Below are positions 6,691 through 49,148 of a stretch of DNA of 61,548 nucleotides, piece after piece. The position numbers were made by a program, and so were the translations under genes. The stretch lies in the NCBI GenBank assembly GCA_937996605.1, contig CALKVB010000436.1, forward strand, positions 1-61,548, given 5' to 3'. The stretch is from an uncultured Oxalobacteraceae bacterium (GTDB lineage Bacteria > Pseudomonadota > Gammaproteobacteria > Burkholderiales > Burkholderiaceae_D). The notes under the pieces are model-generated. The model had not been told where the DNA came from and ran no database searches. It was given only the letters and a program-made list of their open reading frames with translations. Within the stretch, counting starts at the first letter, position 1. Each line of letters starts with the position of its first letter.

Positions 6691-8328
6691 ATGGAACGAC
6701 GTGACTTTCTTAACTTGAGTGGTGCCGCCTTAGGCACTTTCCTATTGCCAGCTTATGCACGTGCGATCACGGCAGATGAGCTCTTGAAGCCGGTCTCGAA
6801 CCAGTTTCGTAAAGCTCTCGCTGATACAGCATTGAACGCGGCGACCAGTGCTGGTGCAAGTTACTGCGACGTGCGTATCGGTCGCTATTTGAATCAGTTT
6901 ATTTCTACACGCGATTTGAACGTAGAAAATGTGGCGAATACGGAATCAGCTGGAGTTGGTATTCGGGTTATCGCCAAAGGTGCTTACGGTTTCTCGGCAA
7001 CTAATGATATGTCTCCGGATGGCGTGGCCGCGGCGGCGCGTCAAGCGGTCGCGATTGCGATGGCGAATTCTAAGTTGCAAACCGAGCCGGTTCGTTTGGC
7101 ATCTGTCAAAGGTGTGGGTGAAGTGAGTTGGGCCACACCGATCAAAAAAGATTGGCGCACAGTGCCAATTAAAGAGAAGGTTGAGCTCTTGATTGCGGCG
7201 AATAAGGCAGGTATGGAAGGCGGTGCCAACTTTATGCAGTCGGTCATGTTCCAAGTCAATCAGCAGAAATATTTCGCCTCCACCGATGGCTCGTATATCG
7301 ATCAAGATGTGCACCGTTTGTGGATGCCTATCGCCGCCACTGCGGTCGATAAGAAGACGAATAAGTTCCGCACCCGCCAAGGCTTGTCTGCACCAGTAGG
7401 CCGTGGTTATGAATATCTCGACGCGCGTCCTGAAGATAAAGTGAAAGCTGCTGGCGGTGTGGCTACGCTATACAAGAACTCTTACGATCTGATCGAAGAT
7501 GCACGTGCATGTGGTAAGAGTGCTAAACAGAAATTGACCGCCAAATCAGTCGTTCCTGGCAAGTATGATTTGGTGTTGAGCCCAGAACATATGTGGTTGA
7601 CGATACATGAATCTGTTGGTCATCCAACTGAGCTTGATCGCGTTCTCGGATATGAAGCGAATTTTGCTGGTACCAGCTTCGCTACCATCGATAAGTGGGA
7701 ATCTAAAAAATTCAAGTATGGCTCTGATAAGGTCAACATCATCGCTGACAAAGTTGTACCAGGCTCCTTGGGCGCTGTTGGCTATGACGATGAAGGTGTG
7801 AAGACTAAACAATGGGACATCATTAAAGACGGTATTTTGGTGAATTACCAAGCGACGCGTGATCAGGTGCATATGATTGGCCAGAATGAATCCCACGGTT
7901 GCTCTTATGCGGATAACTGGAGTAGCGTGCAGTTCCAACGTATGCCAAATATTTCTTTGGCAGCGGGTAAGAAGCCACTGACACCAGACGAATTGGTCAA
8001 AGATGTGAAAAAGGGTATTTACATCGTCGGTGAAGGCTCGTTCTCCATCGATCAACAACGCTACAACTTCCAATTTGGTGGCCAAATGTTCTTTGAAATC
8101 AAGAACGGCAAAATTGGGGAGCAGTTGGAAGACGTTGCTTATCAATCTAACACGCAAGAATTCTGGAATGCCTGCAGCGCAACCTGCGATGAACGTGATT
8201 GGCGTATGGGCGGCTCCTTCTTCGATGGTAAGGGCCAACCATCTCAGTCGAGTGCTGTTTCGCACGGTTCAAGTACCACGCGTTTTAATGGCATCAATGT
8301 AATCAACACTGCACGTAAAATCGGCTAA
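6691..8328 (+). CDS. tldD: TldD/PmbA-family metalloprotease, TldD-type subunit 1, Tat signal
   Basis: MERRDFL twin-arginine motif, HESVGH zinc motif, YDDEG, RMPN. SD aggag upstream. Confidence 0.88.
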   Translation: MERRDFLNLSGAALGTFLLPAYARAITADELLKPVSNQFRKALADTALNAATSAGASYCDVRIGRYLNQFISTRDLNVENVANTESAGVGIRVIAKGAYGFSATNDMSPDGVAAAARQAVAIAMANSKLQTEPVRLASVKGVGEVSWATPIKKDWRTVPIKEKVELLIAANKAGMEGGANFMQSVMFQVNQQKYFASTDGSYIDQDVHRLWMPIAATAVDKKTNKFRTRQGLSAPVGRGYEYLDARPEDKVKAAGGVATLYKNSYDLIEDARACGKSAKQKLTAKSVVPGKYDLVLSPEHMWLTIHESVGHPTELDRVLGYEANFAGTSFATIDKWESKKFKYGSDKVNIIADKVVPGSLGAVGYDDEGVKTKQWDIIKDGILVNYQATRDQVHMIGQNESHGCSYADNWSSVQFQRMPNISLAAGKKPLTPDELVKDVKKGIYIVGEGSFSIDQQRYNFQFGGQMFFEIKNGKIGEQLEDVAYQSNTQEFWNACSATCDERDWRMGGSFFDGKGQPSQSSAVSHGSSTTRFNGINVINTARKIG

Positions 8329-8339
8329 GGAAATCCATC

Positions 8340-9674
8340 ATGAAACATTTAACGCGAGAAGAAGCAAAGAGTATCTGCGATAAAGTGATGTCGTTTTCCA
8401 AAGCAGATGAATGTAATGTGCAAATTGGAGGCAACCGTACCGGCAATATCCGCTTTGCGCGCAATGCAGTATCGACTTCAGGTGTAGTCACAGATACGCA
8501 AATGGCCGTCGCGGTCGCTTTCGGTAAGAAGCAAGGGATCGCCACCATCAATGAATTTGATGATAAGTCTTTGGAAAAAGTGGTGCGTCGCGCGGAAGAT
8601 TTGGCGCGCTTGGCACCAGAAAATCCAGAATTTATGCCCGCGGTGGCGAAGCAGACCTACAAAGAAACACCGACCTTCATTCAAAAAACCGCCGATATTG
8701 ATCCTGAATTTCGCGCTCAAGTTGCCGCATATTCGATCGAAGCCTGTCGTAAAAAGAACTTAGTGGCGGCAGGTTTCTTTACCGATGTCACTTCCTTTTC
8801 TACAGTCGCCAATTCGAATGGCGTGTTCGGCTATCAACGCGAAACGGGCTTGGACTTTACTTGTACAGTACGTACCGAAGATGGTCGCGGCTCGGGTTGG
8901 GTCAAGCGTTCAATCGGCGACGCTAATCGTTTCGATGCTCGCGAAGCGGCTGATGTCGCGATTGAAAAAGCTTTGCGTTCGATGGAAGCAAAAGCGCTAG
9001 AGCCAGGTCGTTACACCGTGATCTTGGAGCCAGCAGCGACTTCCGATTTGATCGGCAATATGCTAGGTGGTTTTGATGCGCGTTCTGCAGACGAAGGCCG
9101 TAGCTTCCTATCGAAAAAAGGCGGCGGTAATCGTTTAGGTGAAAAACTATTTGATGAACAAGTCAATATTTGGGCGGACCCTTGGAACCCAGATGTCGCT
9201 GTCTTGCCTTGGGATGGTTCGATGTTGCCCCGTGAACGTACTGAAGTCATCAAAAATGGACGCGTAAATTCTCTTGAGTATTCTCGTTACTGGGCGCAGA
9301 AACAAAAAGTCGCCATGCGTGCTGGGCACGGCAATATGATCATGGGAGGTACAGAAAAGACCACAGCTGAACTGATCGCCAATACCAAGAAAGGTATTTT
9401 GGTAACGCGTACGTGGTATATCCGTATGGTGGATCCGCAGTCGGTATTGTTGACAGGCTTAACCCGTGACGGCACTTTCTATATTGAGAACGGCAAGATC
9501 ATGTATCCAGTGAAGAACTTCCGTTTCAATGAAAGCCCAGTCACCATGCTCAATAACATCGAAGAGATAGGTAAGCCTGTGGTCATCGCAGGTGATGAAG
9601 TGCCTTATCAAATGTTGATTCCACCGATGAAGGTCAGAGATTTTAATTTCACGTCGCTTTCAGACGCCGTGTAA
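8340..9674 (+). CDS. TldD/PmbA-family protein, TldE/PmbA-type subunit 1
   Basis: RFARN, LEPGRYTVILEP, TGLTRDGTFYIENG, NFRFNES. No HExxxH. Starts 11 bp after tldD. Confidence 0.85.
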   Translation: MKHLTREEAKSICDKVMSFSKADECNVQIGGNRTGNIRFARNAVSTSGVVTDTQMAVAVAFGKKQGIATINEFDDKSLEKVVRRAEDLARLAPENPEFMPAVAKQTYKETPTFIQKTADIDPEFRAQVAAYSIEACRKKNLVAAGFFTDVTSFSTVANSNGVFGYQRETGLDFTCTVRTEDGRGSGWVKRSIGDANRFDAREAADVAIEKALRSMEAKALEPGRYTVILEPAATSDLIGNMLGGFDARSADEGRSFLSKKGGGNRLGEKLFDEQVNIWADPWNPDVAVLPWDGSMLPRERTEVIKNGRVNSLEYSRYWAQKQKVAMRAGHGNMIMGGTEKTTAELIANTKKGILVTRTWYIRMVDPQSVLLTGLTRDGTFYIENGKIMYPVKNFRFNESPVTMLNNIEEIGKPVVIAGDEVPYQMLIPPMKVRDFNFTSLSDAV

Positions 9675-9695
9675 TTCAGTGAAATTATGAAGAAA

Positions 9696-9730
9696 AATTC
9701 AGCAAATTGCTGCGTGCTATTTGCTGAATT
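9696..9730 (+). other. Intergenic stem-loop between the two TldD/E pairs
   Basis: aattcagcaaat...atttgctgaatt, 12-bp inverted repeat with no U-tract. Confidence 0.55.
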
Positions 9731-9785
9731 GTCTGAAGTTGAAATCAGGTGAGTTTGACTGAGTCAAGCATAATCAGGAGCAAAG

Positions 9786-11423
9786 ATGGAAAGACGTGAC
9801 TTTTTAAAAATCAGTAGCTATGCCGCGGGTGCCTTGATGGTGCCAGTGTTTGGTAACGCGATTGCGGCAGAAGAATTGATGAATCCTATGGCCAAGGCGT
9901 TTAAAAAATCCTTGGCTGATGCTGCAATGAATGCGGCGACCAAAGCCGGTGCTAGTTATTGCGATGTGCGAATTGGGCGTTATATCAATCAATTTATTAC
10001 CACCCGTGATACTCGTGTAGAAAATATTGTTAATTCCGAGTCTATGGGTGTTGGTGTCAGAGTGATTGCAGGCGGCGCTTATGGCTTCGCCTCGACCAAT
10101 GACATGAGCGTCGATGCCGTAGCAAATATTGCTAAGCAAGCGGTGGCAATCGCCAAAGCCAATGCAAAACTGCAAACCGAACCACTTATGCTTGCTCCAG
10201 TAAAAGCTTTGGGCGAAGTCAGCTGGGCTACACCGTTCACCAAAGATTGGCGCAAGATTCCGGTCAAAGAAAAAGCAGATATGCTGATCGCTGCTAATCG
10301 CGCAGGCTTAGAGGCGGGCGCTAGTTTCATGCAATCTAATTTGTTTCAAGTGAATCAAGAGAAGTATTTTGCTTCGACGGATGGCTCTTATATTGACCAA
10401 GATATTCATCGTTTATGGGCACCGATGACGGCGACCGCAGTGGATAAAGCCACCAATAAATTCCGTAGCCGTGAGAGCTTGTCTTCGCCAGTTGGCATGG
10501 GCTTTGAATTCTTTGATGCCAATCCACAAGATAAAGTCGCTGCGGCTGGTGGAGTCACGACTTTATATAAACGCTCTGTCGATTTGATCGAAGAAGCACG
10601 TGAGAGTGGCCGCCAAGCGCGTGAGAAATTAAGTGCAAAATCAGTAGAACCCGGCAAGTATGATTTGGTGTTGAGCCCAGAACATTTATTCTTGACGATC
10701 CACGAATCGGTGGGACATCCAACAGAATTAGATCGTGTGTTGGGTTACGAAGCGAACTATGCTGGAACTAGTTTTGCGACCTTGGATAAATGGCGTTCCA
10801 AGAACTTTAAGTTTGGTGCTGACCGCGTTAACTTCTTTGCGGATAAAACCACGCCGGGTTCTTTGGGCGCCGTCGGGTATGACGATGAAGGTGTGCCAAG
10901 TAAGCGTTGGGACATCATCAAAGATGGCGTTTTGGTCAATTACCAAGCGACGCGCGATCAGGCGCATTTGATCGACGAAAAAGAATCTCATGGCTGTTCG
11001 TATGCAGACAGTTGGAGCAGTGTGCAATTCCAACGTATGCCAAATGTCTCATTAGCAGCGGGTAAAACGCCATTGAGTCCAGATGAGATGATTAAGGACG
11101 TCAAGAAAGGAATTTACATTCTCGGTCGTGGTTCTTATTCGATTGATCAACAACGCTATAACTTCCAGTTTGGCGGTCAACTATTTTACGAGATCAAAAA
11201 CGGCAAGATTGTTGGTCCTGTCGAAGATGTGGCCTATCAATCCAATACTCAAGAATTCTGGAATAGTTGCAGCGCCATTTGCGACGATAAAGATTGGCGT
11301 ATGGGTGGCTCATTCTTTGATGGTAAAGGGCAGCCGAGTCAGGTTAGCGCCGTATCCCACGGATCGAGTACCGCTCGTTTCAATGGCATTAATGTGATTA
11401 ATACCGCACGCAAGATCGGATGA
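9786..11423 (+). CDS. tldD: TldD-type subunit 2, Tat signal
   Basis: MERRDFLK, HESVGH. Colinear paralog of 6691-8328 (both 545 aa). Confidence 0.88.
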   Translation: MERRDFLKISSYAAGALMVPVFGNAIAAEELMNPMAKAFKKSLADAAMNAATKAGASYCDVRIGRYINQFITTRDTRVENIVNSESMGVGVRVIAGGAYGFASTNDMSVDAVANIAKQAVAIAKANAKLQTEPLMLAPVKALGEVSWATPFTKDWRKIPVKEKADMLIAANRAGLEAGASFMQSNLFQVNQEKYFASTDGSYIDQDIHRLWAPMTATAVDKATNKFRSRESLSSPVGMGFEFFDANPQDKVAAAGGVTTLYKRSVDLIEEARESGRQAREKLSAKSVEPGKYDLVLSPEHLFLTIHESVGHPTELDRVLGYEANYAGTSFATLDKWRSKNFKFGADRVNFFADKTTPGSLGAVGYDDEGVPSKRWDIIKDGVLVNYQATRDQAHLIDEKESHGCSYADSWSSVQFQRMPNVSLAAGKTPLSPDEMIKDVKKGIYILGRGSYSIDQQRYNFQFGGQLFYEIKNGKIVGPVEDVAYQSNTQEFWNSCSAICDDKDWRMGGSFFDGKGQPSQVSAVSHGSSTARFNGINVINTARKIG

Positions 11424-11490
11424 TGGTCTGTAGCACGCTAGACCAATGAATAAGAGTTTTTCCTGTATCGAATAATAGAAGGAAAAGAAA

Positions 11491-12819
11491 ATGAAACAAA
11501 TGAGTCAAGAAGAAGCAAAACGTATCTGCGATCGCGTGATGGCCTTATCCCGTGCAGATGAGTGTCGCGTATCCATTCAAGGAATCCGCGCTGGCAATAT
11601 TCGTACGGCGCAAAATAGTGTGTCGACCGCGGGACTGAATCAAGACACGCAAATGTCGATCAGTGTTGCCTTTGGTAAGCGTCAAGGCACTGCAACCATT
11701 AATGAGTTTGACGATAAGTCTTTGGAACGTGCCGTGCGTCGTGCGGAAGATATCGCACGTTTAGCACCTGAAAATCCTGAATTTATGCCGGCAGCAGGCA
11801 AGCAAGAATTTAAGGCCTCGCAAACCTATTTTAAAGAAACTGCGGCGATTGATCCTGATTATCGCGCAGAGGTGGCGGCCCAAAGCATTAATTTGGCGAA
11901 AAAAAATAAGCTCATTACTGCTGGATTTTTTCTCGACACCGTGGGTTTTGAGGTTATCGCTAACTCTAACGGCGTCTTCGGTTACCAAGAATCAAGCAAT
12001 CTCAGCTTTAGCTGTACAGCGCGTACCGAAGATGGTCGTGGTTCTGGTTGGGTCACACGTTCTGCGAACGATGTGCGCTTGTTTGATCCGCGTGAAGCGT
12101 CTGAAGTCGCGATCGAAAAAGCCTTGCGTTCGGTCGATGCTAAAGCCTTGGAGCCTGGTCGCTATACAGTTGTCCTTGAGCCAGCCGCATCCTCTGATAT
12201 TTTGAATTTCATGTTTAATGCGTTTGATGCACGCTCTGCTGACGAAGGCCGCAGCTTCTTGTCGAAGAAAGGCGGCGGCAATCGCCTCGGTGAAAAGATG
12301 TTCGATGAGCAGGTTAATATTTGGACAGATCCTTGGGATGCGAATGCGCCAGTGGTGCCATGGGATGCGGGTTCTATGTTGCCACGTGAAAAAATGTCCA
12401 TGGTCAAAAACGGTAAGATTGAGTCTTTGCAGTATTCGAATTTTTGGGCCAAGAAACAAGGCGTTGCAGCGCGCGGTCGTGCTGGCAATACCATCATGTC
12501 GGGTGGCGATAAGTCGACTGAAGAACTAATTGCATCGACCAAAAAAGGCATCTTGGTGACACGCACCTGGTACATCCGTTCAGTTGATCCTCAATCATTA
12601 TTGGTGACAGGGTTGACTCGCGACGGTACCTTCTACATCGAGAATGGCAAGGTAAAACACCCAGTCAAAAACTTCCGCTTCAACGAGAGCCCAGTAACGA
12701 TGTTGAATAATATTGAAGACCTCGGTAAAACGCAGGTTTTTGGTGATGGAAGAAAATCAGTCGTGCCAGCAATGAAACTACGTGATTTCAATTTCACGTC
12801 TTTGTCTGATGCGGTGTAA
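11491..12819 (+). CDS. TldE/PmbA-type subunit 2
   Basis: Paralog of 8340-9674 with the identical C-terminus RDFNFTSLSDAV. Confidence 0.85.
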   Translation: MKQMSQEEAKRICDRVMALSRADECRVSIQGIRAGNIRTAQNSVSTAGLNQDTQMSISVAFGKRQGTATINEFDDKSLERAVRRAEDIARLAPENPEFMPAAGKQEFKASQTYFKETAAIDPDYRAEVAAQSINLAKKNKLITAGFFLDTVGFEVIANSNGVFGYQESSNLSFSCTARTEDGRGSGWVTRSANDVRLFDPREASEVAIEKALRSVDAKALEPGRYTVVLEPAASSDILNFMFNAFDARSADEGRSFLSKKGGGNRLGEKMFDEQVNIWTDPWDANAPVVPWDAGSMLPREKMSMVKNGKIESLQYSNFWAKKQGVAARGRAGNTIMSGGDKSTEELIASTKKGILVTRTWYIRSVDPQSLLVTGLTRDGTFYIENGKVKHPVKNFRFNESPVTMLNNIEDLGKTQVFGDGRKSVVPAMKLRDFNFTSLSDAV

Positions 12820-12928
12820 TCAGCAAGAATTAGCAAAAATCAGTAAGTATCAACAAGTATTTGCAAGAGCGAGCAGGCTGGCATCGCCAGTCTGTAGCGC
12901 TTGCGTAAGGATGGGCTAGAGCAAGAGC

Positions 12929-13549
12929 ATGAGTCGATACGATTTTTATTTTACGCGTTTGATGTACGACTCAGGTGACTGGGATGTGGATATCCGCATG
13001 CCCAGTAATGTATTGAACTCCTTGGTCGAATATACCACCCTACGCGTTGATACGGTGGAGCGAGTAATTGCGCTTGCTGATCCCAAGATGTTGGAGGCGC
13101 CGTTTTGCTATTTGGCAGGCCACAAGCTGGTGCAGTTCAATCCGCAAGAACGTAAAAATTTAGAACGCTATGTGAAGGGCGGCGGTTTTTTGTTTGTGGA
13201 CGATTGTAATCACGACATTGATGGTTTATTCGCGAAATCGTTTGAAGCAGAAATGATCAAGATATTTGGTATCAAGGCGCTCAAGAAAATCCCGAATTCC
13301 CACCCCCTGTATTCGTGTTTTTTTAAATTCGATGGCCCACCGAATACCAGTGTTGAGTTGAACGGCTGGGGTGATGACTTAGTCCACGATTATCTAAAAG
13401 CCATAGAAATTGATGGCCGTATTCGTGTCCTGTATAGCAATAAAGATTATGGTTGCGAATGGGACTACGACTTTCGCAATAAACGATTTTTGGCGATTGA
13501 TAACACCCGCTTCGCCGTCAATATTATTCAGTATGCATTAGGAGCATGA
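12929..13549 (+). CDS. DUF4159-like protein
   Basis: YDSGDWD, PFCYLAGH, GGGFLFVDDC, HPLYSCFF, DYGCEW. Typical position upstream of MoxR. Confidence 0.75.
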   Translation: MSRYDFYFTRLMYDSGDWDVDIRMPSNVLNSLVEYTTLRVDTVERVIALADPKMLEAPFCYLAGHKLVQFNPQERKNLERYVKGGGFLFVDDCNHDIDGLFAKSFEAEMIKIFGIKALKKIPNSHPLYSCFFKFDGPPNTSVELNGWGDDLVHDYLKAIEIDGRIRVLYSNKDYGCEWDYDFRNKRFLAIDNTRFAVNIIQYALGA

Positions 13550-14544
13550 ACGTGCAAGCCAGTTGGAATGAACAAGAAATTGCCGACCTCGGTCAAAAAT
13601 TATCTGGCTTGACGGCCAGTATGTCGCAGGTCATCGTTGGTCAGAAAGACGTGATTGATTCCTTAGTGATTTGTTTGATTGCGGGTGGACACGCCTTACT
13701 CGAAGGTGTTCCAGGCTTGGGCAAGACCTTGCTCGTAAAATCCTTAGCACAAGCGACGGACTTGCAATTTCGACGTGTGCAATTTACGCCCGATCTCATG
13801 CCTTCGGATATCGTAGGCACTGAAATTTTAGAAGAAGATACCAGCACACGTCAGCGTGTGTTTCGTTTTCAACCTGGCCCGGTATTCACGCAAGTGTTGT
13901 TGGCCGATGAAATTAATCGGGCGCCGCCAAAAACGCAATCCGCTTTGCTCGAGGCGATGCAAGAACGCTCAGTGACTTTTGCGGGACAAACCCATCGCTT
14001 GCCACAACCTTTCTTTGTTTTGGCAACGCAAAATCCTATCGAACAAGCTGGCACTTATCCTTTACCCGAGGCCCAGTTGGATCGCTTTTTATTGCGCATC
14101 GATGTCGGCTATCCGACTGAAGAGGAAGAAATCGCGATGGTTTCGCGTACCACCAATGCAGGCATAGGCGAAGCAAGTGCGGCGATGGATGTGGCTAGCC
14201 TTTTACGTTTGCAACAACTCGTGCGAGTGATCGAAATTGGTGAGCATCTGTTGCGATATGCCACGCGTTTAATTCGCGCTACACGCCCTCAAGAAAGCCA
14301 AATCGAACGAGTGCGTCAACAAGTTGGTTGGGGTGCTGGCCCACGCGCTGGTCAAGCTTTGGTGCTGGCTGCTAAGGCTCGTGCTTTCATGCAAGGTCGC
14401 TTAGCCGTCACACGCGAGGATATCGGTGCGATGTTATTGCCCGTCCTAGCGCATCGAGTCTTACGCAATTTCGAAGCTGAGGCAGATGGAGTCGCGATAG
14501 CCGATATTTTGATGGCGATACGTGAACAGATTCAAGTCGCTTGA
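13546..14544 (+). CDS. MoxR-family AAA+ ATPase
   Basis: GVPGLGKT Walker A, RVQFTPDLMPSD, LLADEINR Walker B, ATQNPIEQAGTYPLPEAQLDRF. ATGA overlap with the upstream gene. Confidence 0.95.
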   Translation: MNVQASWNEQEIADLGQKLSGLTASMSQVIVGQKDVIDSLVICLIAGGHALLEGVPGLGKTLLVKSLAQATDLQFRRVQFTPDLMPSDIVGTEILEEDTSTRQRVFRFQPGPVFTQVLLADEINRAPPKTQSALLEAMQERSVTFAGQTHRLPQPFFVLATQNPIEQAGTYPLPEAQLDRFLLRIDVGYPTEEEEIAMVSRTTNAGIGEASAAMDVASLLRLQQLVRVIEIGEHLLRYATRLIRATRPQESQIERVRQQVGWGAGPRAGQALVLAAKARAFMQGRLAVTREDIGAMLLPVLAHRVLRNFEAEADGVAIADILMAIREQIQVA

Positions 14545-14586
14545 ATTGATAAATGTTGAAAATCCTGCTGATTGCTTTATCCCACT

Positions 14587-15471
14587 ATGCTTGATATCGC
14601 CACTCTTCTGGCCCATAGCAAAGATCTTGATCTCGTCGTCCGCCATGTATTGGCCGGTTTAGGTCATGGTTTGCACGCCGGTCGTGAGCGTGGTGCGGGC
14701 GTCGAGTTCTCGGAGTACCGCGCTTACGCACCAGGGGATGAATGGCGCCGCGTCGATTGGAAACTCTTAGCACGTAACGATCGTTACTACGTGCGCGAAG
14801 CTGAACGCGACAGTCACGTGGCGGTGTGGTTTTGGTTAGATGCAAGTGCATCGATGAGTGAAGCGAGCCATCGTTACGCCCAGGTTTCCAAACTAGCTTA
14901 TGCGCGTGCAGTAATCGCTTGCCTAGCGGCGGTCGCCCAGCGACAAGGCGATGCTTTTGGCCTCTTGATTGCCCAACATGACAGCATCGATTACACCCCA
15001 GCTTCTCGTGGGCCACGGCAGTTGCAGCGTATCATGGCGCGTCTGAATCAAACCACTGCTGGCGGTGCGTTGCCGAATAGCGAGACCATACGCTCACACC
15101 TGCATTTTGCAAGGGCACCGAGCATGGTGTTCGCAATTGGTGATTTTCTAGAGCCACAATCCGCAACCGAAGAGGCATTACTGCGTTTGCGACGCATGCA
15201 ACACGATGTGCGTGCACTGTGCCTTCGTACAGAAGCAGAAGTGAAAGCAGATTTTTCCGAGAACATGACTTACTGTGATCCAGAGATGCCGCAGTATTGG
15301 GTGGCCTTTGATCGCAACGCGAAAGACGTCTATTTACAAAAAGCGCAGGCGCACTTTGAGCAATTGCGTGCCAATTGTAGACGAGCAGATATTCCTTATT
15401 TAGAAGCCTGTATCGAAGACGACCCCACCAAAACCATACGTGCCTTTTTGCGCAAAGCGAGGCCGGTATGA
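14587..15471 (+). CDS. DUF58 / VWA-like protein
   Basis: GAGVEFSEYRAYAPGDEWRRVDWK (DUF58) and MIDAS-like DASAS. Start placed at ATG 14587; TTG 14572 is an alternative. Confidence 0.88.
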   Translation: MLDIATLLAHSKDLDLVVRHVLAGLGHGLHAGRERGAGVEFSEYRAYAPGDEWRRVDWKLLARNDRYYVREAERDSHVAVWFWLDASASMSEASHRYAQVSKLAYARAVIACLAAVAQRQGDAFGLLIAQHDSIDYTPASRGPRQLQRIMARLNQTTAGGALPNSETIRSHLHFARAPSMVFAIGDFLEPQSATEEALLRLRRMQHDVRALCLRTEAEVKADFSENMTYCDPEMPQYWVAFDRNAKDVYLQKAQAHFEQLRANCRRADIPYLEACIEDDPTKTIRAFLRKARPV

Positions 15472-16637
15472 GTGTTTTATTTAGCTGGTGGTGGTTGGGC
15501 TTGCCCTTGATGGCTTTGCCGATTTGGTGGCACAGGCAACGTCGTCAACAAACCTCTGCCCAGCCTTTAGCAACGGCGCGTTTTCTGGCGCAAACGGATC
15601 CGCGTTTGCAGAGTGTTTGGCGTTGGCGCCAACTCCTTCTTTTGATCTTGCGCCTGTTGATGCTTGCTTGCTTGTTAGCTTTGGTCGCGGGAATTTTTTA
15701 TCGTGGCCGTGGCGATACTATTTTTATTTCCGAGCAGGCCGACAAGACGTGGGTGCAACAGCAACTGAGTCAGTCGAAGAAGGAGGCAGGGGGCGACTGG
15801 TCAAATGCCAAGATCGAGCGTGTGTGCGTGGAAGCGAGTTGTTCGGTTCAAACTGATCAGATATTGCCATGGTTGGCGCACCATCAACATGAGTGGAAAC
15901 GCGGTAGCAAATGGTTAGTGTTGGCGAGTGCCAGTGATGGTCAGATCAGCGCTTTGCTGCCCCAGTTTGACAACGCATTGGACTTAAGAATTTCACCATT
16001 GACTTCACCAGAGAAGCTGTTGCCCGCGACCATCTCTATTGTCGTCAAGAGTGCACGATTCGCCGAATGGCAGGCATGGTTCAAAGTATTTGAACAAACG
16101 CTTGATGGGCGCTTGCATTTTGATGTGAAAGAACAATGGAATACCAAAGTACCTGCTAGTTTGGTGGTGTGGGAAAGCCCTTTGGCACCGACGGCAGAAT
16201 GGCAAGCACCGTTGTGGTGGCTTAGTGAAGCGTCCGCTTTTGCAGCAGACATTGAGAATGCAAAAGATAAGCGCACCAGTGAATCTGAAGCGCTGAGCGC
16301 ACTCGGACTCCGTGCTTTTGAAACTAAGCAAGGACGAGTGTGGTTGAAATCGGCAAACAGCGATTGGCCTCTAAACGAATTGGGAGGCGCCAAGCGCTTA
16401 TTTGAAACTTGGCGCGCTCTGCAAAGTCAGCCACAGGGCTTTCCCTTGCAAGCGTTGTCCTTGCCTGCGGTAACCACAGCAACAACATCAGCAACAATAT
16501 CTACAACAAAAAGTGATAGCGAACGCACGGACGATTCTGATGGTGAGAAAAAGGCCAATCTTGATCGCTATTGGATGTTGGCCTTGCTGAGTTTGTTTTG
16601 CTTAGAACGGATTGTGAATCATGCCCGACGCACTTAA
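15468..16637 (+). CDS. BatA-like N-terminal double-TM protein
   Basis: WWWLGLPLMALPIWWH...RF...LLLILRLLMLACL N-terminus; C-terminal TM ending LER. Confidence 0.7.
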   Translation: MSVLFSWWWLGLPLMALPIWWHRQRRQQTSAQPLATARFLAQTDPRLQSVWRWRQLLLLILRLLMLACLLALVAGIFYRGRGDTIFISEQADKTWVQQQLSQSKKEAGGDWSNAKIERVCVEASCSVQTDQILPWLAHHQHEWKRGSKWLVLASASDGQISALLPQFDNALDLRISPLTSPEKLLPATISIVVKSARFAEWQAWFKVFEQTLDGRLHFDVKEQWNTKVPASLVVWESPLAPTAEWQAPLWWLSEASAFAADIENAKDKRTSESEALSALGLRAFETKQGRVWLKSANSDWPLNELGGAKRLFETWRALQSQPQGFPLQALSLPAVTTATTSATISTTKSDSERTDDSDGEKKANLDRYWMLALLSLFCLERIVNHARRT

Positions 16638-18738
16638 GCATCTTCGCTCATCACTGTTCTTTGCCCTGCTCACTCAGCGGGTGTGGCTGTATCTGGCATT
16701 CGCAGCGCCTTGGATCGTGGCGCAGTATTGGCCCCCACTGATGTTGATCTTTTTCGGCTCTGCTATCGATGTGTGGCGTTGGCATCGACATCTTGATCGA
16801 CATTTGGTGGCTATTCTCAATGCTACATGTATAGAGCTTGAAGATAGTAGCCAACTGCTATGGACGGCAAAAACACCGATTGCGCTCCTACAGCAGCGGC
16901 GCTTGTGGCAACGCGTCGGGACATTCCTCAATAAACAGCGCATTCAACATCTGGCGCAGAAATTACACATCTTTGGATGGCTTTTGCGTGTAGCTTTACT
17001 GATCAATCTCTTGTTGGCTGCATGGATATGGGTGCACGCCTCGCGAACAACGATTTCTTCTCCAATAATACCGTCTGCTGCGGTGACAGTAAAAAGTAGC
17101 ATTGCTCGATTAAGTATTAAAGTCGCACCGCCAGCGTACACCGGCGTCGCCGCATTCGAGACTGAAGCCAAAGAATTGAATGTGCCTGAACATAGCTTCA
17201 TCACTTGGTGTTTGCATCAGACATCGGGCGGAGATTCATCAAACACGATGCAAGAGATACGTTTGAGTAACGGACAGACACTGAGTTTGGGTTCGACAAC
17301 CCAAGAACATAAGGAGAAGCGCTGCGTCGATTGGGAAGCGAGCGAAAGTGTATTTTGGATTTGGAGTGGCGAAGCAAAGCCACAACGTTGGAATATCAAA
17401 GTGAAATTAGACCAAGCACCAACGGTCGAAATACAGAAGCCCACTGAGATGTTGCAAGTTTTGGTGGCAGATACAAAACAGTTCTCGATGGCGCTGCGGG
17501 TAGTCGACGACTATAAAATTACGAACGCGACCTTGCATCTCACCTTGGCCCGCGGTAGTGGCGAAAATATTCGCTTTAGCGATAAAGAGTTGGCCTTGCC
17601 TCAAGGTGTAGACCCACGCTCGCGAGCTTGGCAAAAGCAATGGACCTTGAGCGAGCTTGGCATGGAGGCTGGCGATGAATTGTATTTCTTTGTGCAGGCA
17701 AGCGATAACGCTTTACCTACTCCACACATCACGACTTCTGCGACCTACACAGTGCGGCTGCCTTCACCCGAGGCAAAAGAAGAACAAACTTCAGTCTTGC
17801 CGATTTTGGTGAAGCCTGAGTCTTTACGTAGTCAACGCCAGATCATTATCGATACCGAGCAGTTGTTGGCAGACATGAAAGCCAATCCAAGACTAGCGCC
17901 CGCAGTGATTCGTAGCCGCAGTGAAACGATCGCCAATGACCAGGCCGCATTGCGGCGCCGTTACGGCAAATTCTTGGGTGAAGAGTCGACTCTATTTGGT
18001 GATGAAGCCGAAGGCGAACATGGCGAACATGATGAGCACGGAGGCCAGCAAAAAGGGGGCGAATATAAGCCAGTAGATATGGCAGCGGCCTATGGACATG
18101 CGCACGACCAAGAAGAAAATGCGACTTTGTTTGATGAAGCGACCAAGAAAATTTTACGCAAGGTATTGGCAGCGATGTGGGATGCAGAGAAGTCACTGCG
18201 GTCTTTAAGCCCTGTGACGGCTTTGCCGCCAGAAAACAAGGCCTTAGAAGGAATTAAACAACTACAACAGGCAGATCGCATATACCTTCATAAAGCAGCT
18301 TTCATCCCGCCTGTGATCAAAGAGGAAAAACGCCTCAGCGGCGATGTATTAGAGGCCAAGAATTGGAAATCTAAGCCCACGAGCCTAGCAGAGCGCATAC
18401 CAACAGAGATTCGTAATCTCATCGATGATCTCGCGCAAGCGAAGCCGCTACCGGCTTTGTGGAGTAAAACTGCGAGAGCTTGGTTTGCGCAGAGTTTGAA
18501 AGACGAGGAACAAAGATTGGCGGCTCAAGCTGCTGTACAAGATGTACTCGATGGATGTGATAGTTGTCGTGCACCATTGCGGGCGTGGCTGCGCTCATCG
18601 CTAGGTGAAGGACAGCGTTTGTTGCAAGCGAATGACGCAGCGTCGCCAGACAGCAAGCCCGCTGCCACGAGCCGATGGCAGCGAGCATGGAAAGCCTCGG
18701 GATTATCATCTGAGCTTGAAACAGGAGCGCGCAAATGA
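16621..18738 (+). CDS. Membrane-anchored DUF4175-like protein (Ig-like and helical regions)
   Basis: N-terminal TMs, PPAYTG, DQAPTV, DDY, LGMEAGDELYF...ASDN, RSQRQIIIDTE, GHAHD. Confidence 0.6.
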   Translation: MPDALKHLRSSLFFALLTQRVWLYLAFAAPWIVAQYWPPLMLIFFGSAIDVWRWHRHLDRHLVAILNATCIELEDSSQLLWTAKTPIALLQQRRLWQRVGTFLNKQRIQHLAQKLHIFGWLLRVALLINLLLAAWIWVHASRTTISSPIIPSAAVTVKSSIARLSIKVAPPAYTGVAAFETEAKELNVPEHSFITWCLHQTSGGDSSNTMQEIRLSNGQTLSLGSTTQEHKEKRCVDWEASESVFWIWSGEAKPQRWNIKVKLDQAPTVEIQKPTEMLQVLVADTKQFSMALRVVDDYKITNATLHLTLARGSGENIRFSDKELALPQGVDPRSRAWQKQWTLSELGMEAGDELYFFVQASDNALPTPHITTSATYTVRLPSPEAKEEQTSVLPILVKPESLRSQRQIIIDTEQLLADMKANPRLAPAVIRSRSETIANDQAALRRRYGKFLGEESTLFGDEAEGEHGEHDEHGGQQKGGEYKPVDMAAAYGHAHDQEENATLFDEATKKILRKVLAAMWDAEKSLRSLSPVTALPPENKALEGIKQLQQADRIYLHKAAFIPPVIKEEKRLSGDVLEAKNWKSKPTSLAERIPTEIRNLIDDLAQAKPLPALWSKTARAWFAQSLKDEEQRLAAQAAVQDVLDGCDSCRAPLRAWLRSSLGEGQRLLQANDAASPDSKPAATSRWQRAWKASGLSSELETGARK

Positions 18739-20423
18739 ATTGGCTCAACGGTATTTTGAGTTTGTTACTGATCGCAGTGGCCTTGTGGTCAATGCGCGGA
18801 TACACGCGAAGGCTGGAGAAGGCTTTAGTATTGTGTTCAGCACTGTGTGTACTCGCCATACTGTGGCAGGAAAATTGGATACCTTGGTTGCAAGCGCAGT
18901 TGCCGCCAAAATCGCCATCCACCTTGGTTATTCATAGCGATAAACAAGCCGTCTTGACGCCGAGCTTACAAAGGCAAATTGAAGGCGCTCAACAAATTCA
19001 ATTGCTGGGAGATGGCTATCGCCGGAGTCAATGGCAAGATATCAAGGCGAGGCCTTTGGTCTGGCAGCAAGACAAAGATAAACCGAGTCTGCAGCTGCAA
19101 TTTAAACCGCAAGTCGCGTTAGGACGTGAGTTTGAATTAGTGATCCAGCGCCAAATGCACTCGCGCCCCGTTGTTGATCAAAGGCGAGGTCAGTGGCATG
19201 CCCAACTGTTGGCGGAGAACGGCGTGGTCTTGGCTGAGGAGAAAAGCAAAGAAGCGAGTTTGCGTTTGCGGTGGTTGGCCCCAGTTGCAGAACGTATGGT
19301 ATTGCAAGCGAAAGTCTTCGATGAGAATGAGAGGCTGATTGATGCGGGGCCTATCCCTGTTGAGGTGAAGGCACTCAAACCTTTGCAAGTTTGGGGGCGT
19401 TTTGACGCCTCTTCATTTGATGCAAGATCACTGCAAAACGTGCTGCGCCAAAGCCAAGCACTGCTCGATTGGCAAACACGTTTGGGCAAAGATATTCAGC
19501 ACATAGAAACGCCTGTTACTGAAATCACCAATACCGATTTGATGCTGATCGATGCTGCCTTTCTCGAGCAACAAAGTGGAGCGTCTTTGCAGCAGATATT
19601 GGCGCAAGTGGCCAAAGGAAAGACCTTGATGGTACTGGGTGCGAACGCGAATCAGACCAACTTTTGGCGCCAACGTTTTGAGCTTAATTTGCAAGCGAGT
19701 AACCTCACGAAAGATGCGGAAGTCACGGTCGATGTCGCAGGCTTTGGCAGCATGAGCCTAACCCCGAACGCATTCTCAGTGATGCCTAACAATGTGAGCA
19801 ATGCAGGCAAAGCCTCGACTTGGCACGCATACCCACAAAGTAAAGGTAGTACGCCGTGGCTGTGGCAACGTTCGTGGCAAGGGGGGGGCATCGCGTGGAT
19901 CGCGCTCAGTGATTGGCATCGACATGCGATCGCGACCCCGCAAAAACTCACGGCGTGGTGGCAACAAATTTTTGATCAACTTGAGTCTGCAGGACCTAAT
20001 TCGCTTGGCATATCTTTGCGAGATGAAATGCCGCTGCTAGGTGAACGCCAAATTGTGTGCGCGCAAGGCATAGTGCAAGGAGGAATAAGCGCAGTTGAGA
20101 AAGTGGTCTTGCCTTTATCGAGCTATGCCGAGGCAGTGGATCAACTCTGTACTGCTTGGCGACCCATGCAAATCGGCTGGCAGGAATTAAGCTTAACAGC
20201 ACCAGAATTGAAGTCACCCATGCAGCAAGGTTTTTATGTGTATGCGAATGATGCCTGGCCAACGTGGCAGCGGTATTTGAAAGCACAAGCGAACTTGGAG
20301 TTTGCTGAGCGGCTGCCAGCAAGGCTTAAAGCAGTCGCGCCGCAGCTTCCGATGTGGCCACTCTATTTACTTACAGCGCTGCTTTTGCTTGGCTTATGGC
20401 GTATCGACACAAAGCGCGCTTAG
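18735..20423 (+). CDS. Hypothetical membrane protein, last gene of the MoxR cluster
   Basis: 562-aa ORF with ATGA overlap, N- and C-terminal TM segments and a large soluble middle. Confidence 0.7.
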   Translation: MNWLNGILSLLLIAVALWSMRGYTRRLEKALVLCSALCVLAILWQENWIPWLQAQLPPKSPSTLVIHSDKQAVLTPSLQRQIEGAQQIQLLGDGYRRSQWQDIKARPLVWQQDKDKPSLQLQFKPQVALGREFELVIQRQMHSRPVVDQRRGQWHAQLLAENGVVLAEEKSKEASLRLRWLAPVAERMVLQAKVFDENERLIDAGPIPVEVKALKPLQVWGRFDASSFDARSLQNVLRQSQALLDWQTRLGKDIQHIETPVTEITNTDLMLIDAAFLEQQSGASLQQILAQVAKGKTLMVLGANANQTNFWRQRFELNLQASNLTKDAEVTVDVAGFGSMSLTPNAFSVMPNNVSNAGKASTWHAYPQSKGSTPWLWQRSWQGGGIAWIALSDWHRHAIATPQKLTAWWQQIFDQLESAGPNSLGISLRDEMPLLGERQIVCAQGIVQGGISAVEKVVLPLSSYAEAVDQLCTAWRPMQIGWQELSLTAPELKSPMQQGFYVYANDAWPTWQRYLKAQANLEFAERLPARLKAVAPQLPMWPLYLLTALLLLGLWRIDTKRA

Positions 20424-20913
20424 CGGCAAGAGGTGCAGTCCGCTTGTTTTTATGGCTTATGATTTTAATTTTGTAAAAACCATTTTTTGCAAAATTAAAA
20501 TCAAATCTAACCGATGAAAATTTACTTTGACTAAATTAAATTTATTTTAGATCTGAAATGGTTGTTATTTAACTACGCTTATTTTAGTCACTATAACTTT
20601 GATCAAAACACAGCAAGTTCGCAATTTAATTCTTTGGCCAAGCTCGCCCAATGAATCTTCTCTTTCTCGTGCTGTGCAAATTCTCATGACTTGAACTACA
20701 GCAAGCATTTTCATGTGTGAACTCCTTTTTCTGCCATTACGCCTCGCTTTCAATCTCCTTCAAATTCGTTTCTACTGAAGTTCCATTGGTTCGATGTTTA
20801 TCCCCAGGAACCAATATGTGATGCTGCGAGATTTGTGAATGCGTTGGAGTCTTCAGCATCGTTTTTTCTTCAGGACCTGCATAAGAACATGTCTGAACTT
20901 AGGAGGAAGTAAG

Positions 20914-21471
20914 ATGAATAAGAAGTTGAAAGTAGCATTAGCTTTAGTATTCGGTTTGACCAGCGCTGCGCAAATTGCCTATGCCATGACGGTTAATTCG
21001 ACCTACGTTAACAACACGGGTAATGAAATCCGCGGAATCTTTGGACGTTATTCCAACCCAACGATTTATCTCGATCGTCGCGCCTGTGGCGAATCTCAAT
21101 TGTCGGCTATGGCATGTGGGCCGTACACCATTAGTGTCGGAAGTTCCTTCCTGCAAAACGCAGAGAACAATTACGGCAATTATGCGGCGAAAGCTATCTT
21201 AGGGCATGAATGGGGTCATACGATTCAATTTACCTATAACATCAATCCCGGTCAGCCTTACCTCGAGTTGCAGGCCGATTGCGCGGGCGGTTCTTTCATT
21301 CGTTATGCGGTCGATAGTTTGCGTTATCCGAACTTCTTAGCGACTGCCGTGAGTGCTGCACGTGCCTATGCAGGTGGTGATCATGGTACTCCTGCTCAAC
21401 GCGATTACTACACACGTTGGGGCTACACTAATGGCATTTCCAAATGTCTGAATAACCTACCGCGCGTTTAA
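20914..21471 (+). CDS. Secreted neutral zinc metallopeptidase (YpfJ/zincin-like)
   Basis: Strong SD aggagg before ATG 20914, signal peptide, HEWGH...ELQADC and DHGTPAQR motifs. Confidence 0.8.
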   Translation: MNKKLKVALALVFGLTSAAQIAYAMTVNSTYVNNTGNEIRGIFGRYSNPTIYLDRRACGESQLSAMACGPYTISVGSSFLQNAENNYGNYAAKAILGHEWGHTIQFTYNINPGQPYLELQADCAGGSFIRYAVDSLRYPNFLATAVSAARAYAGGDHGTPAQRDYYTRWGYTNGISKCLNNLPRV

Positions 21472-22526: not shown

Positions 22527-23804
22527 TTACTTACTCGCAGCTTTCACCACTTCGCCCGCTTTGATCACCACTGCGACATTTTCTAAGAGGCGTACGTCTT
22601 TACTTGGATCACCCTTGACGGCGACCATATCGGCAAAACGACCTGCTTCGATGATACCGACATCTTTGCTGGCCAAGGCTTCTGCAGCATTGATCGTCGC
22701 CGCTTGAATTGCTTGTACCGGCGTCATGCCATATTTCACCATGGTGGCGAATTGTTTTGCGTTGTCGCCATGTGGGTAAATACCGGCGTCGGTACCGTAC
22801 ACCATTTTCACGCCGGCTGCGTGCGCTTTGCGGAATCCTTCGCGTTGGATGTCTGCGACTTCGCGGTCTTTACGCAAATTATCTTCAAGCACACCATTCT
22901 TTTTACCTTCCGATTGCGTGTAATCGGTGTTGTAAATGTCCATTGACAAGTAGGCGCCATGCTTCTTAGCGAGCGCAATACCTTCATCATCGATCAAACT
23001 GGCGTGCTCAATGGTGTCAATGCCAGCACGAATCGCATCCTTAATACCTGATGTGCCATGTGCATGCGCTGCCACGCGCAAGTCCCATTGATGTGCTTCC
23101 TCAGCAATGGCTTTCATTTCCGTTAGACTTAATTGCTGTTGGCCTGGTTCAGTATTGTGTGAAAACACGCCACCAGTCGCACAAATCTTGATGACTTGCG
23201 CACCATACTTACGTAATTCGCGCACACGTTTGCGGCCTTCTTCTGGGCTATCGGCGTTGTATGGGCTACGTTGATTCATCGACGGTGGGAAGAAAGTCGA
23301 GTCGCAATGACCGCCGGTAGCACCGAAGGAATACGCAGCGGTAACGATACGTGGACCACGCACTTTTCCTTCATCGATGGCCTCGCGCAGTCCTACGTCA
23401 TTCCATGCGTCTGAACCCACATTGCGTACCGTAGTGAAGCCTGCATCCAAAGTGCGGCTGGCGTGAGGAACGGTGATGATAGACCAGAAGCGATCGTTAA
23501 ATTGCAGCGTGTTATAGCCGCCATAAGTGGGATCACTATCGAGATGGACGTGCATATCGATCAAACCTGGAACCAAGGTCATACCTGCTAAATCGATTTT
23601 CTTGGTATCGGCAGCAACACTCTGTGCACCTTGCTTCACACTAACGATACGACCATCGCGCACTAAGATCTGCGGATTCGCGATCATTTTTCCTGTACGC
23701 ACATCGAGCATTTGGCTCGCGGAAATCAAAACATCAGCCGCTTGCGCATAAGCTGAAAAACTTAAAGCAGCGGCAATCGCCGTCAAAGAAAAAGCAAACT
23801 TCAT
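22527..23804 (-). CDS. Secreted amidohydrolase-superfamily peptidase (Xaa-Pro dipeptidase-like)
   Basis: Start revised to MKFAFSL (signal peptide ...AYAQA). PGLIDMHVH, GFTTVRNVG, IKICATGG, AHAHG, IEHAS, GTDAG. Confidence 0.88.
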   Translation of the reverse strand: MKFAFSLTAIAAALSFSAYAQAADVLISASQMLDVRTGKMIANPQILVRDGRIVSVKQGAQSVAADTKKIDLAGMTLVPGLIDMHVHLDSDPTYGGYNTLQFNDRFWSIITVPHASRTLDAGFTTVRNVGSDAWNDVGLREAIDEGKVRGPRIVTAAYSFGATGGHCDSTFFPPSMNQRSPYNADSPEEGRKRVRELRKYGAQVIKICATGGVFSHNTEPGQQQLSLTEMKAIAEEAHQWDLRVAAHAHGTSGIKDAIRAGIDTIEHASLIDDEGIALAKKHGAYLSMDIYNTDYTQSEGKKNGVLEDNLRKDREVADIQREGFRKAHAAGVKMVYGTDAGIYPHGDNAKQFATMVKYGMTPVQAIQAATINAAEALASKDVGIIEAGRFADMVAVKGDPSKDVRLLENVAVVIKAGEVVKAASK

Positions 23805-23940
23805 TGAGTAACTCCAGTGAGAGAAAAAATACAGCAGGTGCTGAGCGCTGCTTAGTATCGCGTTTGTATCGGGCATGGTCAAACCATAGCGCAGAATCTG
23901 ACGTACGCTACCAACAATCGAGTCATAAATGAATAAATTG

Positions 23941-23971
23941 AAAAGCAAAAAGCCCACCAAATGGCGGGCTT
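23941..23971 (-). terminator. Intrinsic terminator closing the csp 3' region
   Basis: Minus strand AAGCCCGCCAUUUGGUGGGCUUUUUGCUUUU: GC-rich stem followed by a U-tract. Confidence 0.75.
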
Positions 23972-24348
23972 CGTGAACAACAATAAGTATAAAAAAGCAT
24001 GCATCGAATTCCCATCCCACCGACGCTATCTGCGAAGTGTGTGATGTGGTCTCAAGCCCATGCTATCTGCATGGTGCCCTTGTGAAATTCAATTACGGCG
24101 GGTTCGTTCCGCTGTTCTTATTCTGTGTTGGGTGAGTTTGCCGCAACCGGTACGGCATACCGTTACACCATCTTCGCTTGCCCACACTATCTGTGTGGTG
24201 CTACACGCCGGTGAGAACGATGAGGCAAAGCCTCAATCACTTTTCTTTGATTGCGATCGATGAACTTTTGTCTTCCCAACGCTATCTGCGAAGTGGTCAA
24301 CGTCAGTGCATGATGCAATGGCGAATCTCTGTCTCAATTAAAAATTGA
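23946..24348 (-). ncRNA. Putative structured RNA or long 3'-UTR with four C-AGAUA-G hairpins
   Basis: Four ctatctg-centred inverted repeats (loops at 24027-31, 24064-68, 24188-92, 24283-87), compensatory stem changes, additional hairpins and a distal terminator. Confidence 0.6.
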
Positions 24349-49138: not shown

Positions 49139-49148
49139 GATTCGACTT

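Follow-up and report, generated by a model that had tools for sequence, protein, structure and literature searches.

The contig stretch analysed here (CALKVB010000436.1, 61,548 nucleotides of an uncultured Oxalobacteraceae bacterium, hereafter the window) holds at positions 6691-20423 an operon of ten genes, in which two pairs of TldD/TldE-type protease genes stand before the genes of DUF4159, of a MoxR ATPase, of a DUF58 protein of the von Willebrand factor A (VWA) type and of three membrane proteins. We concluded that the protease half and the MoxR half of this operon are almost certainly linked in function. The TldE subunits very probably leave the cytoplasm together with TldD by the twin-arginine translocation (Tat) pathway, and a model of the complex points to DUF4159 as a likely third subunit of the protease. 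By analogy with characterised MoxR/VWA systems, we tentatively suggest that the MoxR machine loads or activates the metal site of the protease in the periplasm.

Layout and conservation of the operon

The ten open reading frames (ORFs) are co-oriented on the + strand and fill exactly the interval 6691-20423, in the order tldD1-tldE1-tldD2-tldE2-DUF4159-moxR-DUF58-BatA_N-ORF9 (DUF4175-like)-ORF10 (GATase1-like). The gaps between successive genes amount to 11, 111, 67, 109, -4, 27, -4, -17 and -4 nt: four of the nine junctions overlap, in keeping with an earlier, sequence-only reading of the window which had described ten co-oriented genes with overlapping stop and start codons, and the widest gap is 111 nt. 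Pfam recognises all three PmbA/TldD domains in each of genes 1-4, and DUF4159, AAA_3, DUF58 (with a weak VWA_2) and the BatA N-terminus in genes 5-8; ORF9 and ORF10 (genes 9 and 10) have no Pfam match.

The sequence-only reading had coupled the TldD/E half to the MoxR half, and the two halves did co-occur in every sample surveyed (the figures below are counts and not a statistic, since related genomes are not independent). In a draw of 301 Pseudomonadota genomes, DUF4159 is present in 72, as a small stand-alone gene in 6 and within a long frame of 789-1222 aa in 66. The stand-alone DUF4159, the TldD clade of the operon (at least 63% identity) and ORF9 (E 1e-30 or better) are found in the same 6 genomes and in no others, while a seventh genome has a 40%-identical TldD relative, remote from its DUF4159. 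When 120 genomes of the family were sampled, two TldD of the clade and ORF9 were present in the same 17 and both were absent from 103 (16 of 119 without the unpublished genome G386); within the genus, DUF4159 is found in just 3 of 18 genomes. Of 80 loci anchored on DUF4159, 63 extend far enough in both directions, and both halves are present in every one of them. Similarly, a distant ORF9 group was used to fetch 80 loci; the upstream DNA suffices in 31, and the whole set is there in the same order in 31/31. Judged by these sequences, the operon is kept in at least two bacterial phyla; the label "Bacteroidota-like" used below comes from the cluster name of the query, Cyclobacteriaceae.

A nine-gene operon of Stenotrophomonas maltophilia with at least two TldD/PmbA genes and MoxR, there called not yet characterised, is down in biofilms (PMC7688217); its orthology to the present operon was deduced from gene order and annotation. 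The supplement gives -2.1 to -2.4 for five genes of both halves, MoxR standing outside the table (the meaning of the column is presumed; PMC7688217). A Xanthomonas tldD transposon mutant, not assignable to the TldD clade of the operon, has delayed leaf degradation (bioRxiv 10.1101/2023.05.09.539948), and two adjacent tldD genes of Xanthomonas campestris pv. campestris shift together in a regulator study (PMC6430473). No functional study of the ten-gene operon was found in a literature search that had most subscription papers outside its coverage. The view of the sequence-only reading that this architecture has no assigned function holds in the literature searched for the full set of genes, but the membrane half does have relatives, in TldD-less alphaproteobacterial operons.

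The protease and its predicted third subunit

Both TldD carry HESVGH at residues 306-311, and HExxxH is found in neither TldE. The E. coli TldD/TldE (PmbA) complex (PDB 5NJ5; PMC5810440) likewise has HExxxH confined to TldD and three PmbA/TldD domains per subunit; its TldD ligates Zn or Fe through His262, His267 and Cys454 (PMC5810440). In the operon family, His306 and His311 are invariant in 70/70 aligned TldD, and the C-G-K of the third ligand is replaced by D-G-K (Asp512) in all 70, in 136 of 140 proteobacterial TldD ORFs (the other 4 being without any match) and in 47/47 Bacteroidota-like ones. The Cys ligand is kept in the canonical TldD of the genome and in a signal-less actinobacterial relative which is 41% identical. 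Hence, since Asp is found in the Tat-bearing TldD, the change to Asp goes with export; an oxidation-proof ligand and an altered metal are both possible explanations of it. The Lys, Glu, Asp and Arg which tether the clamp in E. coli have invariant counterparts here (K514, E314, D316 and R417). By alignment, H300, R317 and H525 stand where E. coli has W256, F273 and V465, residues of a hydrophobic pocket, and they may indicate polar substrates or a second metal site.

The operon version differs from the E. coli enzyme by its Tat peptide, Asp512 in place of Cys454, its duplication, a predicted third subunit and the adjoining MoxR module. The best sequence match between the two is merely E 2e-11. 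The NCBIfam equivalog cut-offs are missed (TldD 61 and 84 bits against 513; PmbA 57 and 75 against 438), so that the two pairs can be placed at the superfamily level alone. The genome, nearest among named organisms to Undibacterium and other Oxalobacteraceae, has a canonical tldD (contig C512), a pmbA (contig C301) and tatC elsewhere. A plasmid search for TldD returned just two distant actinobacterial TldD.

Both TldD open with the Tat motif RRDFL and a hydrophobic stretch. The motif was recognised by pattern in 135 of 136 proteobacterial TldD, the odd one out retaining RR, and in 34/34 complete Bacteroidota-like TldD. No export signal was found on TldE in the proteobacterial and Bacteroidota-like loci checked; therefore TldE likely travels with TldD. 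The Tat motif supports the export of TldDE which the sequence-only reading had put forward, but the signal is on TldD only; this, and the change of the metal ligand to Asp, had been missed. If this is true, a periplasmic, Asp-liganded, three-subunit form of TldD/E joins a family known mainly from the cytoplasmic enzyme of E. coli.

DUF4159 has the fold of Hoch_4089 (PDB 4I66; Z 22.5, rmsd 2.4, 187 aligned; Foldseek E 8.5e-13), an uncharacterised DUF4159 with about 25% identity, whose structure was solved alone. This is a class I glutamine amidotransferase (GATase-I) fold (1KXJ, Z 9.6, rmsd 3.1, 145 aligned; IFT52, Z 9.4), in agreement with the Pfam clan note. Located on the sequence, the nucleophile-elbow position is Asp91 family-wide, and an invariant, clade-specific Cys93 follows the strand. 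Together with His65, His95, His153 and Cys176, which are also invariant, Cys93 could mark a site for catalysis or metal binding in DUF4159 itself. A middling match to a domain of human site-1 protease (PDB 8UW8 chain A 616-874; Z 8.5, rmsd 4.1, 168 aligned) was seen as well, so that a second protease has this fold joined to it. The homologue search gave close relatives only, among the 120 matches listed.

We modelled TldD2 (29-545), TldE2 (201-442) and DUF4159 (3-206) together, with a 70-row alignment for each. The model docks DUF4159 across TldD and TldE with a score of 0.67, the best of three controls reaching 0.00; the docking mark is attained by 116/157 solved complexes against 2/215 mismatched pairs, the contact agreement between runs is at least 57% and the pLDDT of the partners at least 89. 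The loops 135-149 and 176-190 of DUF4159 contact residues 286-291, 481-487 and 536-545 of TldD and residues 221-224, 400-407 and 431-438 of TldE. Both loop motifs are present in 70/70 TldD-linked DUF4159 and in 0/15 of the alpha type, that of the TldD-less alphaproteobacterial operons. Both paralogue pairs retain the docking site (16/17 and 15/15 identical), and the interface residues of TldE are clearly more conserved than the remainder (p 2e-5). No solved complex of like kind was found in sequence searches, whose matches were 4I66 alone and TldD/PmbA entries. Two points tell against the model: the calibration by solved and mismatched pairs applies only roughly here, given our own alignments, the three chains and the truncation of TldE to 201-442; and the conservation of the interface is borderline on DUF4159 (p 0.05) and absent on TldD (p 0.18).

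The N-terminus of DUF4159 was classified by hand: 92/125 loci (52 of the Oxalobacteraceae group, 40 Bacteroidota-like) show no signal, 21 a peptide with a single Arg and 12 one with twin Arg, although the protein is about 71% identical across phyla. The simplest view of a protein that is conserved but can lose its own signal is that it is a second passenger, here on the Tat peptide of TldD. If this is true, it gives a case of two passengers leaving on one Tat peptide. The envelope machine of the sequence-only reading stands in so far as it coupled TldD/E to MoxR-VWA; it had overlooked that DUF4159 is the likely physical link and third subunit.

The two copies of the protease are 75% (TldD1/TldD2) and 68% (TldE1/TldE2) identical. 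TldD1 and TldD2 belong to separate family-wide clades, distinct from the duplications of Xanthomonadales, and a recent local duplication was therefore rejected. An assembly artefact was rejected as well, because four public runs from four studies span the operon without joints or indels, one contig bridges 10656-20614, and the D-E-D-E arrangement recurs in relatives (36 of the 41 Oxalobacteraceae-group loci having enough upstream DNA). Six sites separate D1 from D2, two of which (302 and 451) flank the substrate cleft in the alignment to E. coli; the Xanthomonadales copies differ at these two sites too, plus residue 448. Among 69 loci with two scored TldD, Arg448 is paired with a non-Arg residue in 58, two acidic residues are found in 11 and two Arg in none. 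On a quick tree of 70 rows, with the cleft segments removed, the cleft label changes 8 times, at least 7 of the changes being forced by strong branches; repeated convergence and gene conversion could both produce such a recurrent switch. That the two cleft types are maintained suggests complementary substrate preferences of the copies. In six loci (L024, L031, L044, L065, L076 and L077) the order is D-E-D-DUF4159; the second tldE is missing and two TldD would share one TldE. On a Brevundimonas contig, ORF10 is closely followed on the opposite strand by a second TldD (L067:11827-13596, - strand), which has a Tat signal and belongs to the other cleft type.

The MoxR machine and its possible action on the protease

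The MoxR protein has an AAA_3 match of 218 bits, falls far below the cut-off of the RavA model and is 50% identical to the alpha-type MoxR. Walker A, sensor I and the Arg finger are present in 125/125 TldD-linked MoxR, 96 of which match the strict Walker B pattern too. Adjoining it, DUF58 has a D-x-S-x-S resembling a metal ion-dependent adhesion site (MIDAS) at 90-94, and neither protein has a clear membrane anchor or signal. Two more MoxR paralogues, 49% and 45% identical, are carried by contigs C461 and C116. In the BatA-like protein, two N-terminal anchors flank a basic loop and a further anchor stands at the C-terminus; it has no homology to ORF10, and a VWA match was found in 0/54 BatA-like and 0/55 ORF10 members.

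ORF9 is called DUF4175-like by Atlas (0.97, the family being on 10-17% of cluster members), and Pfam DUF4175 is found in 11 of 28 distant ORF9 members. Its model (pLDDT 82, pTM 0.56) shows membrane helices, Ig domains and a four-helix bundle, for which fold searches gave generic Ig and four-helix matches alone (best Z 10.6). Inside the bundle, at low model confidence, sits a loop (456-503) with 11.9% His, against 1.3% elsewhere, and 27% Asp plus Glu. Its H-x-H-D is found in 147/150 ORF9 proteins, whose mean column identity is 24%. Flexible His-rich loops are typical of metal chaperones, and this one is a candidate metal-handling site. The sequence-only reading is supported in proposing a MoxR-VWA complex of the inner membrane for this half of the operon, but came without noticing the metal-binding type of the His loop. 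In one locus (G439:C22:178517-180568) ORF9 matches as two adjacent pieces, which may reflect a frameshift or a split gene.

In alpha-type loci, MoxR, DUF58 and a BatA::DUF4159 fusion follow each other in that order (15/15 fetched), and an ORF10 homologue comes next in the 8 loci listed in full. DUF58, the BatA N-terminus, DUF4159 and ORF10 thus all have homologues there; ORF10, a GATase1-like membrane protein, is homologous to its alpha-type partner along its length (94.5%, E 8e-8), and the BatA-like protein aligns with the fusion over its N-terminal 80 residues and no more. The differences are as follows. DUF4159 stands alone beside tldE in our operon and has the docking loops, whereas the alpha-type DUF4159 is fused to BatA, lacks the loops and is preceded by one or two extra membrane helices (two in half of the 8 checked). 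The alpha-type DUF4175 gene is unlinked to the operon (5/5 such genomes) and without the HxHD loop, and no TldD/E is nearby. Since DUF4159 is fused to BatA in one lineage and is a predicted protease binder in the other, it is likely to bridge the protease and the membrane complex. The alpha-type operon (MoxR-DUF58-BatA::DUF4159-GATase1-like) presumably corresponds to RL3499-RL3502 of Rhizobium leguminosarum. Mutants in these genes reportedly have envelope defects. According to citing papers, RL3499 is an MRP MoxR important for membrane integrity (PMC5118466, PMC4255674, PMC3893208).

Two precedents show how such a machine may act. MxaR, S, A, C, K and L are required for the insertion of Ca2+ into periplasmic methanol dehydrogenase (PMC12276312). 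In mxaFJGIRSACKL, as is predicted here, a periplasmic two-subunit metalloenzyme and a periplasmic partner are encoded right upstream of the MoxR/VWA set, which is needed for metal insertion, and a VWA adaptor and further auxiliary proteins accompany MoxR (PMC12276312). This trait, a predicted periplasmic metalloenzyme client encoded with MoxR/VWA genes, is present in our operon by synteny and co-occurrence. The client differs, being a protease with a Tat signal, and so do the membrane proteins (BatA_N, DUF4175-like and GATase1-like, with no VWA match beyond DUF58). The second precedent is NorQ/NorD, in which a MoxR-like hexamer and a VWA partner similarly remodel their target, the metal being inserted through twisting (PMC13036017); but NorD grips its membrane client directly, whereas the client and the motor of the operon would face opposite sides of the inner membrane. 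All the parts of the operon belong to known families, and its logic resembles that of known MoxR/VWA systems.

On these grounds we propose the following sequence of events. The two TldD/TldE pairs would be exported via Tat as pre-assembled TldD-TldE-DUF4159 trimers, in which DUF4159, spanning both C-terminal domains in the model, would ride out with TldD as TldE must. Because DUF4159 is BatA-fused in the TldD-less Alphaproteobacteria, it would dock the trimer onto a membrane complex of the BatA-like protein, ORF9 and ORF10. MoxR would pull DUF58, which would grip conserved cytoplasmic loops as NorQD and MxaRSACKL suggest, and the periplasmic HxHD loop of ORF9 would pass metal to the site formed by His306, His311 and Asp512. 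The active enzyme would then trim unfolded peptides from their N-terminus as E. coli TldD/E does, the two TldD copies widening the substrate range by their different cleft charges. The sequence-only reading had spoken of a complex "powered or matured" by MoxR-VWA; the balance of the evidence is on the side of the protease being matured or activated.

Several observations weigh against metal loading in the periplasm. Tat clients usually acquire their cofactor before export. No MoxR is annotated within 4 kb of the actinobacterial TldD relative. The absence of the H-x-H-D loop from DUF4175 of TldD-less genomes (0/5) speaks for the proposal, but this control consists of only 5 genomes, whose DUF4175 aligns with ORF9 mainly over the N-terminal half. 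TldD/E was found within 10 kb in 0/15 alpha-type loci, by a profile that does detect canonical TldD, and the core machine is without TldD in 66/301 genomes; it must therefore have a TldD-independent job there. The BatA-like protein has no VWA match, whereas MxaC and MxaL have VWA. Finally, E. coli apo-TldD/E is reconstituted simply by adding metal (PMC5810440).

It is conceivable, but unlikely, that the whole is a trans-membrane ATP-dependent protease, like ClpX-ClpP across the inner membrane: driven by MoxR, the membrane complex would pull out envelope proteins or unfold them, and their N-termini would be fed to the docked TldD/E chamber. The periplasm has no ATP, and the model of ORF9 offers an extended periplasmic arm of Ig and helical parts. 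E. coli TldD/E requires an unfolded N-terminus of about 15 residues, threaded into a narrow channel (PMC5810440), and the RL3499-RL3501 mutants grow poorly on the peptide-rich TY medium (same citing papers as above). However, characterised MoxR/VWA pairs remodel their clients instead of threading them (PMC13036017), the TldD-linked His loop is left unexplained, and in one S. maltophilia table, with unspecified units, the tld genes are apparently at 2-8 times the level of the machine genes.

We regard it as rather improbable that the machine works before export, MoxR-DUF58 folding, proofreading and metal-loading the trimer in the cytoplasm while the membrane proteins tether it and DUF4159 may be released in signal-less lineages. 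Mycobacterial MoxR1 is said to be a chaperone of a Tat client, and the missing anchors of MoxR and DUF58, as well as the signal-less DUF4159 of 92/125 loci, would fit. But 12 DUF4159 proteins have full twin-Arg peptides, the extra helices before the alpha-type DUF4159 fit a periplasmic location, and neither the His loop of ORF9 nor its large, conserved periplasmic domains would have a task.

We give similarly little credit to an independent envelope machine on which the protease is a docked accessory, active without MoxR, that clears peptides or scavenges food. The core machine without TldD in 66/301 genomes and the full-length homology of ORF10 to the alpha-type protein favour it, as do the sigma-54 promoters ahead of 31/45 Oxalobacteraceae-group operons and the peptidases or TonB-dependent receptors among flanking genes. 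Yet these peptidases vary between lineages and a background rate for them is lacking; the TldD clade never occurs without the machine in two genome samples, and the His loop of ORF9 and the docking loops of DUF4159 are specific to the TldD-linked type. Finally, that two unrelated operons merely lie side by side, as the 109-nt gap and hairpin between tldE2 and DUF4159 could suggest, is hardly credible and largely refuted by their joint presence or absence in 301 and 120 genomes, by the same order in two phyla and by a tldE-DUF4159 gap that shrinks to a few bases in many relatives.

Beside the periplasmic loading of metal, we can thus offer, with still more reserve, a broader formulation: through the inner membrane, the cytoplasmic ATP hydrolysis of MoxR may act on a periplasmic, three-subunit, chambered protease exported on a single Tat peptide, either supplying it with metal or feeding it, and DUF4159 may be a general client-docking domain, so that the TldD-less alphaproteobacterial version would have a periplasmic client of its own. 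If the docking of DUF4159 holds, the alphaproteobacterial machine would be expected to have a partner too. Operons of the MoxR-DUF58-BatA type occur widely and have been connected with envelope defects, but few of their clients are known; the present one points to a client that is easy to assay by peptide cleavage and metal content, to a docking subunit predicted down to its residues and to a loop that may handle metal.

Regulation, neighbouring genes and coordinates

In 31 of 45 Oxalobacteraceae-group loci (L009-L054, e.g. L026, L030 and L045), against a shuffle mean of 0.1, a canonical sigma-54 site precedes the first tldD. It is absent from the window and from three other Undibacterium loci, and was seen in 0/28 other loci. 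The sites are often preceded by 2-6 direct repeats of CGGACA, about 10-12 bp apart, like an enhancer array. The promoter and terminator scan gave no excess over shuffles, and Rfam, run on the window and on 7 loci, had no match. By the patterns applied, 73 upstream regions showed neither a Zur nor a Fur box and hence give no clue to the identity of the metal.

Features of the operon in the window
Feature	Position	Strand	Description
TldD1	6691..8328	+	545 aa; Tat motif RRDFL; HESVGH 306-311; Asp512 replaces Cys ligand; acidic cleft type (W302, E448, F451)
TldE1	8340..9674	+	444 aa; PmbA-type, without HExxxH; without signal peptide
Hairpin after tldE1	9675..9785	+	intergenic; without U-tract; z -2.0
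TldD2	9786..11423	+	545 aa; Tat motif RRDFLK; HESVGH; Asp512; Arg cleft type (F302, R448, Y451)
Hairpin after tldD2	11424-11490	+	intergenic; without U-tract; z -2.9
TldE2	11491..12819	+	442 aa; without signal peptide
Hairpin after tldE2	12820-12928	+	intergenic; without U-tract; z -2.6
DUF4159, stand-alone	12929..13549	+	206 aa; without signal peptide; PDB 4I66 fold (class I glutamine-amidotransferase-like); predicted third protease subunit via loops 135-149, 176-190
MoxR AAA+ ATPase	13546..14544	+	332 aa; Walker A 54-61, Walker B 118-122; sensor I and Arg finger intact
DUF58 VWA adaptor	14572..15471	+	MIDAS-like D-x-S-x-S 90-94; without membrane segment; start probably 14587
BatA-N double-anchor membrane protein	15468..16637	+	389 aa; basic loop 22-56 (cytoplasmic by charge); C-terminal anchor ends in conserved ER
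ORF9, DUF4175-like	16621..18738	+	705 aa; membrane helices at the N-terminus, Ig-like domains (160-382), a bundle of four helices (400-560) and a small helical domain at the C-terminus
His/Asp/Glu-rich flexible loop of ORF9	17986..18129	+	residues 456-503; H-x-H-D at 493-496; candidate metal-handling site
ORF10	18735..20423	+	562 aa; anchored in the membrane at both termini; Ig-like and GATase1-like domains; homologous to the ~690-aa membrane protein encoded in alphaproteobacterial MoxR operons

The three intergenic hairpins possibly stabilise the mRNA, and they may set the ratio of protease to machine higher. For DUF58, whose homologues have about 294 aa, the ATG at 14587 is a possible start codon in place of the TTG at 14572.

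A cluster for the maturation of ribosomally synthesised and post-translationally modified peptides (RiPPs) was rejected. Pfam found no RiPP modification enzyme family among the 40 larger ORFs of the window, and the short ORFs of the flanks give no sign of a precursor peptide, as the sequence-only reading had already remarked.

The flanking genes are conserved solely within lineages. Some operon flanks hold peptidases, a weak hint on the substrates, and the hosts of the operon are largely polymer degraders. In 10 loci of different lineages (L007, L013, L024, L039, L044, L049, L078, L153, L160 and L167) a sensor kinase lies downstream of ORF10, accompanied by a response regulator in 5 of them. 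In the window, outside the conserved operon, positions 20839-21471 encode an exported-looking protein of 210 aa with HEWGH, which has a weak match, far below the cut-off, to neutral zinc metallopeptidases. Two kb beyond the operon lies an Xaa-Pro dipeptidase (22527-24020, - strand), above the NCBIfam cut-off, and a DUF1501-DUF1800 gene pair is found at 47738-50885 (- strand).

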